The translations under genes and the position numbers were made by a program. The notes beneath the pieces are model-generated. The model saw only the letters and a program-made list of their open reading frames with translations. It had not been told where the DNA came from and did not search any database. Positions 13,727 through 16,969 of a stretch of 41,996 nucleotides of DNA are shown piece by piece (positions within the stretch are counted from its first letter, which is position 1; the number at the start of each line of letters is the position of its first letter). The stretch is from an uncultured Dehalococcoidia bacterium. GTDB lineage: Bacteria; Chloroflexota; Dehalococcoidia; Dehalococcoidales; Fen-1064. Location: assembly GCA_903916765.1 (NCBI GenBank), contig CAIWXV010000014.1, forward strand, positions 1-41,996. Reading direction: 5' to 3'.

Positions 13727-16168
13727 TTATCTCACCACGATATTTACCAGTTTCCCGGGCACATAAATAATATTTACGACCTTTTGACCTTGGATGAAAG
13801 GCTTTATTTTTTCGCTTGCCTGAGACATCTTTTTTGCTTCTTCCTCGGTAATGGAAGCAGGTATAGTAATACGGTCGCGCAGTTTACCGTTGACCTGCAC
13901 TACCAGTGTGATTTCATCTTCTTTTGCCAGTTCCTCATCCCATTTGGGCCAGGGCTGGTTATGGATACTATACTTGTGTCCCGTCCTGTGCCATAACTCT
14001 TCCGCAAGATGAGGAGCCGTGGGCGCTATCATTAGGACCAGTTTCTCGATGCTGTTTTGCCAGGCATCGTTCGTCACATTCGCCGATTCCTTGACCTTGT
14101 TGAGGTAATTCGTGTATTCCATTAACGCGGCAATCATGGTATTGAAACGCAGACGGTCCATGTCACCCGTTATTTTTTTGATAATCTGGTGTGTGATTCG
14201 CTCCAACTCTTTCATCGCGGTGGCATCATTTATTTTCGGTTGGTATTCTTCCAGCGCCAGCTTCCAGATACGATTCAGCCAGCGACTGACTCCGCTGATA
14301 CCCGTATCGAACCACTCGCCGCCCTGTTCCCATGGTCCCATGAACATCATATAGGCGCGTACCGTATCGACACCCAGTTCATTGACATATGCATCGGGGT
14401 TGATAACATTACCTTTGGATTTGCTCATCTTCTGATGGTCAGCAATGATAATGCCCTGATTGAAGAGTCTTTTGAACGGCTCTCCGAAATCGATTAATCC
14501 CATGTCCCTGATTGCTTTAGTGAAGAAGCGGGCATAGAGCAGATGCATTACGGCGTGTTCCGCACCACCGGTATAGATATCGACGGGCATCCAGTATTTG
14601 GTTTTCTCCGGGTCAAAAGCAGCTTTGTCATAGTGCGGACTACAATAGCGTAGAAAATACCAGGACGAACACATAAAACCATCAATAGTATCCGTTTCCC
14701 GTTTCCCGGGGCTGCCGCACTTCGGGCATTTGGTGTTAACCCATTTCTCGTTATACTTCAGAGGCGATTCTCCTTGGTGGCTGAAATCGGCTTCTTCGGG
14801 GAGTAGAACCGGTAAGTCTTTTTCCGGCACAGGCACAGTGCCGCATTTATCACAGTAAATCATCGGTATGGGTGCGCCCCAGTATCTCTGTCGTGAAATC
14901 AACCAGTCGCGCATGCGGTAGCTGATTGTTCCCTTTCCCCAGCCTTTTTGTTCCAGAAATGCGGTAACAGCCTTAGTACCTTCCCTGTTAGGCAATCCAT
15001 TAAATTGGCTGGAATTAATCATAGTGCCATCGTCGATATAGGCGTTCTCTAACTCCTCACCTTTCCATTCCGGAGGGGAAATAACCGTCTTGATGGGGAT
15101 GTTATATTTCTTAGCGAAAGCAAAATCGCGTTCATCATGCGCCGGCACTGCCATCACGGCTCCGGTGCCGTAACCGACTAACACGTAATCGGCAATCCAG
15201 ACAGGGACTTTGTCTCCGGTCAGTCTGTTAGTCACATAAGCGCCGGTGAAAACGCCGTCTTTTTCTTTTTCAGTGGAGAGGCGCTCTATCTCTGTGAAAC
15301 GGCGGGTTCTGGCAACATAAGCTTCAACCTCAGCTTTTTTATCAGGTGTGGTCAGTTTTGCTACTAGCGGATGCTCCGGTGCCAGTACCATGAAGGTAAC
15401 CCCGAAGACAGTATCCGGTCGGGTGGTAAATACCTTGATTTCCTTTTCTGCCACACTGGGGTGGTCGAGTGCAAAGGAAACCTCGGTGCCGTAACTTTTG
15501 CCGACCCAGTTCTTCTGCATTATCTGAATACGTTCAGGCCAATCTATTCCTTCATGTTCCATCAGTTCATCGGCATATTTCGTGATACGGAAAAGCCACT
15601 GTTCCAAATCCCGTTTTACAACTGGGGTTTCACACCGCCAGCAAAGCCCGTTTTCTACCTGCTCGTTCGCCAGTACTACTTGACATTGAGGACACCAGTT
15701 GACAGGTGCCTTGCCCCGGTAGGCTAAATCATGCTGGAACAATTTGGTGAAGAACCACTGAGTCCATTTGTAATATTTGGGATCGCAGGTAATAACTTCT
15801 CTGTTCCAGTCGTACATTGCCCCCATAGTCTTTAATTGACGGCGCATGTTCTCGATGTTCGCCATTGTCCATTTGCGAGGATGAATGCCGCGTTTGATAG
15901 CCGCATTTTCGGCGGGTAGTCCGAAAGCATCGAAACCCATCGGATGTAGGACATTGTAGCCCTGTAACCGCTTGAAACGTGCATAAACGTCGGATGGTGC
16001 CATCGCATACCAGTGCCCGATATGCAGGTCGCCGGAGGTGTAGGGGAACATCGTCAGAGCATACCATTTAGGTCGTTTGCTGTCCTCTTTGACTTCATAG
16101 AGCTTGTCGTCAGCCCATTTTTTCTGCCACTTTTTTTCGATTTCCGGTGCATTATATTTGTCTATCAT
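13727..16168 (-). CDS. leuS: Leucyl-tRNA synthetase
   Basis: MFPYTSGDLHIGH, FTTRPDT (CP1 editing domain), DWLISRQRYWG, KMSKS. Confidence 0.98.
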   Translation of the reverse strand: MIDKYNAPEIEKKWQKKWADDKLYEVKEDSKRPKWYALTMFPYTSGDLHIGHWYAMAPSDVYARFKRLQGYNVLHPMGFDAFGLPAENAAIKRGIHPRKWTMANIENMRRQLKTMGAMYDWNREVITCDPKYYKWTQWFFTKLFQHDLAYRGKAPVNWCPQCQVVLANEQVENGLCWRCETPVVKRDLEQWLFRITKYADELMEHEGIDWPERIQIMQKNWVGKSYGTEVSFALDHPSVAEKEIKVFTTRPDTVFGVTFMVLAPEHPLVAKLTTPDKKAEVEAYVARTRRFTEIERLSTEKEKDGVFTGAYVTNRLTGDKVPVWIADYVLVGYGTGAVMAVPAHDERDFAFAKKYNIPIKTVISPPEWKGEELENAYIDDGTMINSSQFNGLPNREGTKAVTAFLEQKGWGKGTISYRMRDWLISRQRYWGAPIPMIYCDKCGTVPVPEKDLPVLLPEEADFSHQGESPLKYNEKWVNTKCPKCGSPGKRETDTIDGFMCSSWYFLRYCSPHYDKAAFDPEKTKYWMPVDIYTGGAEHAVMHLLYARFFTKAIRDMGLIDFGEPFKRLFNQGIIIADHQKMSKSKGNVINPDAYVNELGVDTVRAYMMFMGPWEQGGEWFDTGISGVSRWLNRIWKLALEEYQPKINDATAMKELERITHQIIKKITGDMDRLRFNTMIAALMEYTNYLNKVKESANVTNDAWQNSIEKLVLMIAPTAPHLAEELWHRTGHKYSIHNQPWPKWDEELAKEDEITLVVQVNGKLRDRITIPASITEEEAKKMSQASEKIKPFIQGQKVVNIIYVPGKLVNIVVR

Positions 16169-16206: not shown

Positions 16207-16232
16207 AAAAAAGCCGCCCTTGTGGGGACGGC
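16207..16232 (-). terminator. Attenuator terminator upstream of leuS
   Basis: Minus strand GCCGTCCCC-ACA-AGGGCGGC followed by T6; a near copy of the ilvD terminator. Confidence 0.85.
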
Positions 16233-16262
16233 CCCTATTTAATCATGTGGAGACGGACCCAC

Positions 16263-16316
16263 TTATCGGCCTGAATATGTGATGGTAAGTGTGAAGGATA
16301 GAAGCTGTCCGTTCAT
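16263..16316 (-). CDS. leuS leader peptide, MNGQLLSFTLTITYSGR (17 aa)
   Basis: ATG to TAA with the same length and layout as the ilvD leader; Leu codons CTT, CTA, CTT. Confidence 0.78.
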   Translation of the reverse strand: MNGQLLSFTLTITYSGR

Positions 16317-16324
16317 TAATAGGT

Positions 16325-16353
16325 AAAATATCACAACTGGTGGTTATTGTCAA
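16325..16353 (-). promoter_or_regulatory. Sigma70-type promoter for the leuS leader
   Basis: TTGACA-17 nt-TATTTT with TGn extension; the leader ATG is 8 nt downstream. Confidence 0.78.
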
Positions 16354-16444: not shown

Positions 16445-16485
16445 AGTGCCTCTTCTCCCTTGAGGGGAGAAGAGGCACTTGTTTG
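16445..16485 (+). terminator. Strong orphan hairpin, terminator-like
   Basis: Perfect 15-bp stem AGTGCCTCTTCTCCC / GGGAGAAGAGGCACT followed by TGTTTGT. Confidence 0.55.
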
Positions 16486-16654
16486 TAACTGGTGGGTCGT
16501 TGTGCGCAAATACCTATGCCTGTTAAAAATGTAGCATGCTTAGTTTTGGAGTGGCCGAGACATTATGATTAAATGAATATGAGTTTGCAAAAAATTGAGT
16601 AATACATTTACAATAAAACATTACACCCAAGTCGCAAAGAAAGAGAATTCGGAA

Positions 16655-16969
16655 ATGAGGCGTTCCACCATTATTGGGACCGGCTTTTATGTGCTACCAA
16701 AAGTAGTCACTAACAACGACCTTTCTAAATTTATGGATACCTCGGATGAGTGGATTCAGGAGCGCATCGGTATCAAAGAATGCCACTTTGCAGAAAATGG
16801 TTTAGGTTCCTCCGACCTTGCAAAAATTGCGGCTGAGCGTGCACTTGCCGATGCAGGTATGACTACTAAAGATATCGATATGATTGTCTACGCAACTCTC
16901 AACCCGGATTTCTGTATTCCCATCTCCGGATTTACTTGGGGAGTTTTCTTAATGAGCTGGAGTATCTGA
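16655..16969 (+). pseudogene. fabH: 3-oxoacyl-ACP synthase III with a large in-frame internal deletion
   Basis: N-terminus (IGTGFY..VVTNNDL..MDTSDEWIQERIGI..SDLA..AAERAL..YATLNPD) joins directly to the C-terminal SGFTWG...W motif; only 104 aa; the catalytic Cys/His/Asn region is missing. Confidence 0.85.

Follow-up and report, generated by a model that had tools for sequence, protein, structure and literature searches.

Attenuation by a translated leader peptide is classically known from the enterobacterial trp, leu, ilvGMEDA and pheST operons, the last of which (pheM leader) encodes an aminoacyl-tRNA synthetase. The element described here is a leader of comparable build upstream of leuS, on the reverse strand at positions 16207–16353 of a 41,996 nt stretch of DNA (hereafter the window) from contig CAIWXV010000014.1 of an uncultured Dehalococcoidia bacterium. 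It is quite probably a classical ribosome-mediated transcription attenuator, one of three paralogs that precede ilvD-ilvB, leuS and valS. Like the enterobacterial attenuators, it combines a short open reading frame (ORF) that carries cognate codons with an intrinsic terminator and a predicted antiterminator that would compete with it, and the position of the ribosome is proposed to decide between the two. Unlike them, it has neither a Shine-Dalgarno sequence (the ATG lies 6–10 nt after the −10 hexamer) nor a supported 1:2 helix, and the module has no similarity to enterobacterial leaders in sequence or by covariance model.

A precedent at leuS comes from Streptomyces, where candidate classical attenuators were predicted before leuS and trpS (Seliverstov et al. 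2005, PMC1262725); in the available text of that paper, its authors draw a parallel with pheST and a contrast with the T-box control of Firmicutes. An earlier note on the present DNA had called leader-peptide control of leuS unusual, which it is, but in view of these candidates it is not without precedent (PMC1262725). Both the Streptomyces leader, as set out in the available text, and the one reported here are computational predictions with Leu codons in a leader ORF and with antiterminator and terminator hairpins. Unlike the present case, the Streptomyces leader comes from another phylum, detectable homology is not expected, and the available text does not describe it as the paralog of an ilv leader (PMC1262725). 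At biosynthesis operons, the ilvB motif of Corynebacterium (Breaker laboratory) is described as an upstream ORF rich in Ile, Leu and Val with a terminator (P2) and a complementary antiterminator (PMC11109978), and a Leu-rich attenuator peptide before ilvD of Staphylococcus aureus has genetic support (PMC5794164). Going by the available parts of both papers, these systems share with the present one a leader ORF of branched-chain codons, a terminator and an antiterminator before a biosynthesis operon; unlike it, they have a ribosome-binding site (9 nt upstream in S. aureus) and longer peptides (26 aa), and those parts report no paralogous copies before tRNA synthetase genes (PMC11109978, PMC5794164). 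In mycobacteria, leaderless polycysteine short ORFs are described, in the portion available, as Cys-responsive attenuators (bioRxiv 10.1101/834739). They likewise place a regulatory short ORF at the 5′ end of the transcript, as is suggested below for the present leaders, though for another amino acid and in another phylum. A literature search that covered few subscription journals and no supplements found no leader peptide for valS, or for Dehalococcoides or Chloroflexi. The T-box (RF00230) also senses tRNA charging for synthetase genes by antitermination, as is proposed here; leuS and valS, however, lack T-box features, and sensing at these genes would go through a translating ribosome and not through direct tRNA binding.

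The anatomy of the leuS cassette can be read along the reverse strand. A TTGACA −35 hexamer (16353–16348) is followed by an extended −10 hexamer, TATTTT with TGA in front (16330–16325; sequence and spacing table), and the end of the −10 is separated by 8 nt from the leader ATG at 16316. The leader ORF, MNGQLLSFTLTITYSGR, has 17 codons and a TAA stop (16316–16263, the stop at 16265–16263), and its Leu codons are CTT and CTA at codons 5 and 6 (16304–16299) and CTT at codon 10 (16289–16287). From the first base after the stop runs GTGGGTCCGTCTCC (16262–16249; RNA GUGGGUCCGUCUCC), the 5′ strand of the antiterminator, which in the predicted folds pairs with GGGG.CG..CCCAC of the terminator. The intrinsic terminator, GGGGCCGTCCCCACAAGGGCGGC (GGGGCCGUCCCCACAAGGGCGGC) with a tract of T6 (U6 in RNA), occupies 16235–16207 and folds at −13.2 kcal/mol; its 5′ arm and loop double as the 3′ strand of the antiterminator. 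The gene putatively regulated is leuS itself (13727–16168, reverse strand, ATG at 16168), which matches TIGR00396 (leuS_bact) at 1054.5 bits against a cut-off of 548.4.

A second cassette lies on the same strand between 3091 and 2946, before ilvD. Its −35 hexamer is TTGACA (3091–3086) and its −10 is TATCTT (3067–3062). The leader ORF, MNSLTFSLVLIVTYLSQ followed by TGA (3052–2999), has the control codons L8-V9-L10-I11-V12. The antiterminator 5′ strand, GTGGGCTCGTCTCC (GUGGGCUCGUCUCC; 2998–2985), folds at −15.9 kcal/mol when the 3′ arm of the terminator is excluded, and the terminator, GGGGCCGUCCCACAGGGACGGC with U9 (2976–2946), at −16.1 kcal/mol; the complete ilvD leader has a folding z of −3.8 against shuffles. 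The genes downstream are ilvD (2919–1252, reverse strand, NCBIfam TIGR00110) and ilvB (1242–1, reverse strand, NCBIfam TIGR00118), of which the window holds the start, the gene extending beyond it. The layout that the earlier note had seen in both places, at 16353–16207 and 3091–2946, is confirmed: a TTGACA promoter, a 17-codon ORF, GTGGG..CGTCTCC after the stop and a GCCGTCCC..GGGACGGC-Tn terminator. So are the shared residues of the two peptides, which are identical at M1, N2, S7, L10 (CTT in both), T13 and Y14 and have the same ACATAT.

A BLAST search with the leuS leader against the bacterium's own assembly (1.37 Mb, 149 contigs) found a third terminator of the same sequence on contig C106. 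It belongs to a third cassette, before valS (C106:15342–15477, forward strand; locus L002:1390–1525), with the order TTGACA, TGT-TATTTT, the ORF MTINPVVVVM, GTGGGAC, GCCGTCCCACAAGGACGGC-T6 and then valS. The leuS and ilvD cassettes are homologous, and their likeness is beyond chance: a covariance model built from the copies has exactly three sites in the genome (E values of 1.8e-27, 1.4e-23 and 6e-14). A loose regular expression for the terminator recovered the three cassettes and the terminator of a T-box before ileS, and nothing more, and a generic scan for a promoter, short ORF and terminator gave the three known cassettes and two implausible ones. The prediction of further copies before ileS, valS, leuA or cimA thus came true at valS; since the model has three matches in the genome, there is no copy before leuA or cimA, nor before ileS.

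The distribution of the module was followed in related genomes. The LeuS N-terminus was searched in 61 of these, of which 55 matched, and 40 leuS upstream regions were fetched, 14 other matches being left out as too near contig ends or covered later. The element was present upstream of leuS in 15 of 17 regions from the window's own family (f1), the two without it belonging to genus g6; all 23 regions taken from other families lack it. Covariance model R1, built from 18 copies (alignment A2), found 55 copies at E ≤ 2.6e-6 spread over all 24 genomes of f1, and by blastx the downstream genes were leuS (22), ilvD (22, one cut by a contig end) and valS (11). Three weak R1 matches in f1 (E 0.07–0.09) precede none of these genes. 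R1 matched 34 genomes in a sample of 151 from the order (26 of 143 outside f1) and, under filters stricter than those of the order search, none of 150 other genomes sampled from the phylum. Among the 28 matches fetched from the order outside f1, 25 lie before ilvD, one lies before valS (genome G090, family f38), and two are weak and precede neither gene. Within the genomes searched the leuS copy is confined to f1, and the ilvD copy is the widespread one and probably ancestral.

Two further observations were made in these searches. Two loci before ilvD (L111 in G088, family f36; L112 in G139, family f4) have a TTGACA promoter, GGTGGG and a CCGTCCCACAAGGGCGG-Tn terminator without a leader ORF, perhaps as a derivative of the attenuator that lost its ORF. 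The DNA search pattern for the motif also matches at least eight Halomonas or Vreelandella records (e.g., L134, L136, L146, L148, L168, L170, L172 and L175), which suggests a conserved, unrelated terminator-bearing element.

The codon content of the leader ORFs follows the downstream gene. A leader ORF of 10–18 codons was found in 77 of the 78 tabulated copies, the exception being the leuS leader of G001, and 77 of the 78 ORF-bearing copies have a stop in frame; among the 22 leuS leaders of the family, 21 keep an ORF of 13–17 codons. In the ilvD leaders of f1 (21 copies), Leu stands at codon 8 throughout, in five synonymous spellings; Val (17), Ala (3) or Ile (1) follows at codon 9, CTT at codon 10 in 20 copies, Ile at codon 11 in every copy (ATC 14, ATT 7) and GTT at codon 12 in 18. 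The 22 leuS leaders have CTC at codon 8 in all but that of the window, Thr (10), Ala (9) or other residues (3) at codon 9, CTT (20), CTC (1) or TTT (1) at codon 10, and Thr (10), Ser (9), Ile (2) or Ala (1) at codon 11. The valS leaders carry three or four consecutive Val codons that vary synonymously. The pattern by gene is therefore L-V-L-I-V for ilvD, L-x-L (CTC, CTT) for leuS and V-V-V-V for valS. The change from VLI to TLT, read by the earlier note as a retuning to Leu, was borne out across the 22 leuS leaders, where the Val and Ile neighbours of L10 become Thr, Ala or Ser. The idea of a duplicated and re-specified module is likewise supported by the homologous cassettes, the match between codons and downstream gene, and the further copy before valS.

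Cognate-codon enrichment is present in all three leader classes and is weaker in leuS than in ilvD and valS. The leuS leaders have two to four Leu within 13–17 codons, two of which (codons 8 and 10) are conserved. The three Leu codons of the window's leuS leader had been thought weak for attenuation; two to four are not weak by comparison with the trp leader of E. coli, which has two control codons. Amino acids kept through synonymous changes, the fixed distance from promoter to ATG and the gene-matched codons argue for translation of the leader ORFs and for a role as hungry-codon sensors.

The terminator is an 8 bp, GC-rich stem followed by T5–T9, with mean energies of −14 to −15 kcal/mol and 96.1% of cells paired over 54 copies. 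The strand GUGGG..CG.CUCC, located at the stop codon or a few bases after it, is complementary to the terminator's GGGG.CG..CCCAC, spanning 5′ arm and loop, and the energies of antiterminator and terminator are alike (means of −14 to −16 kcal/mol). In the terminator-model alignment, 80.0% of antiterminator cells are paired, against 40–62% with slid partners. An alignment of 78 copies that was fitted to the antiterminator structure, and is hence biased towards it, gives 82.2% against 35–58%, a covariation score of 0.136 against 0.112 in shuffles (reached by 1 of 500) and 22 double-change cells (reached by none of 500). In all 21 ilvD leaders of f1 and in 9 of 21 leuS leaders the stop codon abuts GTGGG; six further leuS leaders have a gap of 3 nt between the two. 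The distance from CTT to GTGGG is about 27–28 nt and occupies the same alignment columns across the leader classes.

The promoters have a regular spacing. From the first base of TTGACA to the ATG there are 34–40 nt in all but two of the leuS and ilvD leaders, and the two exceptions stem from how the hexamer or ATG was chosen. In these two classes, 6–10 nt separate the −10 hexamer from the ATG, and there is no purine-rich Shine-Dalgarno motif; 7 of the 12 valS leaders have a longer 5′ stretch (44–51 nt) with an AGAG motif. From this spacing we infer that the leuS and ilvD leader ORFs begin no more than a few bases from the transcript's 5′ end.

The proposed sequence of events, in which transcription start, translation, stalling and the switch itself are all conjectural, is as follows. 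Transcription from the consensus promoter would begin on the leader AUG or only a few bases from it, hence the lack of a Shine-Dalgarno sequence, and a ribosome would translate the 17-codon leader ORF. With charged tRNA-Leu plentiful, the ribosome would reach the stop codon and cover GUGGGUCCGUCUCC; with this strand masked, the GCCGUCCCC/GGGCGGC-U6 hairpin would form and transcription would end before leuS. If the ribosome instead stalled on Leu codons, whether on CUU at codon 10 (GUGGG lies about 27 nt downstream) or on CUU and CUA at codons 5 and 6, the strand would stay unmasked. Its pairing with GGGG.CG..CCCAC, in the terminator's 5′ arm and loop, would let the polymerase read into leuS. 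A general figure for the size of the ribosome footprint underlies this masking geometry.

Several findings weigh against this model. The leuS leader of the window has Phe (TTC) in place of Leu at the otherwise conserved codon 8. In the leuS leader of G001 (L012), a 1 nt deletion relative to G006 and G007 lets the frame run through the terminator, which may be real decay or an assembly error. Covariation of the antiterminator in the terminator-model alignment is no better than in column shuffles on four of five measures, and its thermodynamics are modest, with a mean fold z of −0.5 to −0.6 against shuffles and a mean duplex z of −1.1 to −1.8 (17 of 77 copies at p ≤ 0.05). In five leuS leaders a gap of 12–14 nt separates the stop from the antiterminator strand, which a terminating ribosome would then hardly cover. 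Lastly, an anti-antiterminator (1:2) helix between the ORF and the post-stop strand has a mean z of about 0, with 1 of 77 copies at p ≤ 0.05. Such a helix goes unsupported because the stop codon abuts the antiterminator strand; the design therefore differs from the four-segment trp model, and a two-hairpin switch, with stalling at codons 8–12 to free the antiterminator strand, is the simplest model. Single cases of a 1:2 helix, GAGACAAAC/GUUUGUCUC in genus g1 and ACGGAC/GUCCGU in the window, were dropped, the paired segments lying in differing alignment columns.

Some early-stop leuS leaders have a local fold of their own. In L010, L014 and L016 (genus g2), Tyr14 is replaced by a stop, and CCGGATACCACCGG, left untranslated, is able to pair with the beginning of the antiterminator strand in a small hairpin, seen in the fold of L010 as CCGG...CCGG. 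On this modelled fold, the hairpin may take over the masking in such leaders, a possible shift towards the four-segment design.

Other explanations were weighed against classical attenuation. The leuS copy might not be Leu-specific and might instead sense branched-chain amino acids in general (or Leu with Ile/Val and Thr), leuS being merely co-regulated with ilv. Leu specificity is indeed not clean, as codon 12 is Ile or Val in 14 of the 22 leuS leaders (a further point against a pure Leu sensor), and the leader of the window has three Thr and one Ile among codons 9–13 besides the Phe at codon 8. Nevertheless, a general sensor is unlikely: the near-universal V9 (17/21) and I11 (21/21) of the ilvD leaders have become Thr, Ala or Ser in 19 and 20, respectively, of the 22 leuS leaders, the Thr itself is unconserved and interchanges with Ala and Ser, and the valS copies have undergone a parallel re-specification, to Val runs. 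A different proposal leaves the ORF untranslated and makes the element an attenuator of RNA alone, or one that binds protein or tRNA in the manner of a riboswitch or T-box. It would fit the better conservation of the post-stop strand and terminator compared with most of the ORF, and the two weak ORF-less matches before ilvD in other families (L111, L112). This is extremely improbable given that the ATG keeps a fixed distance from the promoter and that all but one of the 78 ORF-bearing copies retain an in-frame stop, that amino acids at the control positions are kept through synonymous changes with a codon identity that tracks the downstream gene, and that no Rfam family, T-box included, matches at the site while true T-boxes occur elsewhere in the genome.

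Leaders that arrest the ribosome through the nascent peptide (TnaC, SpeFL, SecM) have a conserved peptide motif and require amino acids rather than codons. The earlier note had proposed such logic (TnaC/SpeFL-like) for the present leaders, with one critical Leu codon, a new motif, L10-x-x-T13-Y14, and a new leader-peptide family. In keeping with it, CTT at L10 is nearly invariant in both paralogs (20/22 leuS, 20/21 ilvD), and ACATA(T/C) behind the control codons is common to the leuS and ilvD leaders of genera g1, g2 and g8 and recurs in ilvD leaders of other families (e.g., VTYT-stop). The motif itself does not hold up. Intact leuS leaders have Thr-Tyr in 7 of 21 cases and the ilvD leaders of f1 in 11 of 21; in other families it is found in 4 of 23 ilvD leaders, and among the valS leaders in 1 of 12. 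Five leuS leaders (genus g2 and G005) keep ACATA but have TAG or TAA as codon 14, so that all four bases occur at its third position and the Tyr is dispensable. L10, T13 and Y14 are all missing from MTINPVVVVM, the valS paralog in the window's own genome, and leader lengths and C-termini vary freely. With Thr-Tyr in a minority of copies and missing from the valS paralog, a conserved peptide was not found and the arrest class was rejected; as an account of these leaders it is very unlikely. The reading as a new mechanism is unsupported: the mechanism is a textbook one, of which the cassettes are an undescribed example.

A second layer, at the nucleotide level, might lie on top of the hungry-codon logic. 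Codon 10 takes the form CUY, with CUU in 40 of the 43 leuS and ilvD leaders of the family, and codon 8 of the leuS leaders is CUC. Of the Leu codons in long ORFs of the window's own genome, 15% are CTT and 16% CTC, and a gene for tRNA-Leu(GAG) is present. The conserved Leu control codons of the leuS leaders would all be read by this one isoacceptor, the relevance of which is speculation. ACAUA, kept where Tyr gives way to a stop, lies about 10–14 nt downstream of codon 10, at the leading edge of the would-be stalled ribosome. An isoacceptor-specific sensor via tRNA-Leu(GAG), together with the kept ACAUA, is a tentative suggestion with a rather small chance of being right.

The history of the copies can be partly reconstructed. 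The module was probably at first a branched-chain leader (L-V-L-I-V) at the ilv operon and was then copied, with changes to the control codons. Leaders of the ilv type occur in at least 10 other families, and copying from ilvD to leuS and valS is therefore the economical reading. A tree of 78 leaders is poorly resolved, with 38 of 75 inner branches open, and a single origin was not rejected by approximately unbiased (AU) tests, with p values of 0.137 for the leuS copies, 0.113 for all valS copies and 0.474 for the valS copies of the family. In G090 (f38), the valS leader shares 79% identity with the ilvD leader of the same genome and 59–70% with the valS leaders of f1, and it sits inside the clade of f38-type ilvD leaders (tree support 100). 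A second, independent recruitment of the module before valS in f38 is thus probable on these sequences. Within f1, paralogs of the same genome have a mean identity of 0.68 against 0.67 for orthologs across the two halves of the family, a two-clade split defined after seeing the leader tree. This parity may reflect repeated duplication, gene conversion, or noise in 100 nt sequences.

No Rfam family matched anywhere in the window at its gathering score, and E-value scans of both cassettes gave sub-threshold matches alone, the best to a leader family being Phe_leader (RF01859; 16.3 bits against a gathering score of 55). For the T-box model RF00230 the window gave no match, whether by gathering score or with E ≤ 10. 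Elsewhere in the genome, T-box leaders above the Rfam cut-off precede ileS (L115, C50:10441–10715, reverse strand) and a trpB-like gene (L116, C50:4052–4347, forward strand). With a T-box at ileS and leader peptides at leuS and valS, the three branched-chain synthetases rely on two different sensing systems. None of 20 leuS upstream regions from other families of the order has a T-box, so the leuS leader is a gain in f1 and not a T-box replacement. The terminator of the ileS T-box, CCGTCCCTAAGTGGACGG, resembles those of the leaders. Several leuS upstream regions of other families (L023, L025, L035, L041, L044) have a conserved hairpin, GCTCTTCGC...GCGAAGGGC-TTTT, directly before the ribosome-binding site. 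It follows a tRNA-Ala gene in L035 and a tRNA-Pro gene in L023, and may be a mere tRNA terminator or another leuS leader.

Beside the leuS cassette, a perfect 15 bp inverted repeat (AGTGCCTCTTCTCCC / GGGAGAAGAGGCACT, 5 nt loop, then TTGTTTGT; 16445–16479, forward strand) sits between the leuS leader promoter and a diverging fabH-like ORF, and there is no gene upstream on the forward strand that it could terminate. The fabH-like ORF (16595–16969, forward strand, 124 aa) matches just the first ~90 of about 320 positions in FabH profiles, and may be a truncated or frameshifted fabH or have a mis-called start.

As the mechanism is a textbook one, the surprise for a specialist is moderate. The leaders bring uncultured Dehalococcoidia, and valS, into the range of leader-peptide attenuation. 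For closely related tasks, a single genome uses both T-boxes (ileS, trpB-like) and leader peptides (leuS, valS, ilv). The leader family is a possible addition to Rfam-type libraries, for annotating these genomes. It is also an unusually clean case of a module that was copied and re-aimed by a few codon swaps, from L-V-L-I-V to L-T/A-L-T/S or V-V-V-V, with the RNA switch unchanged.

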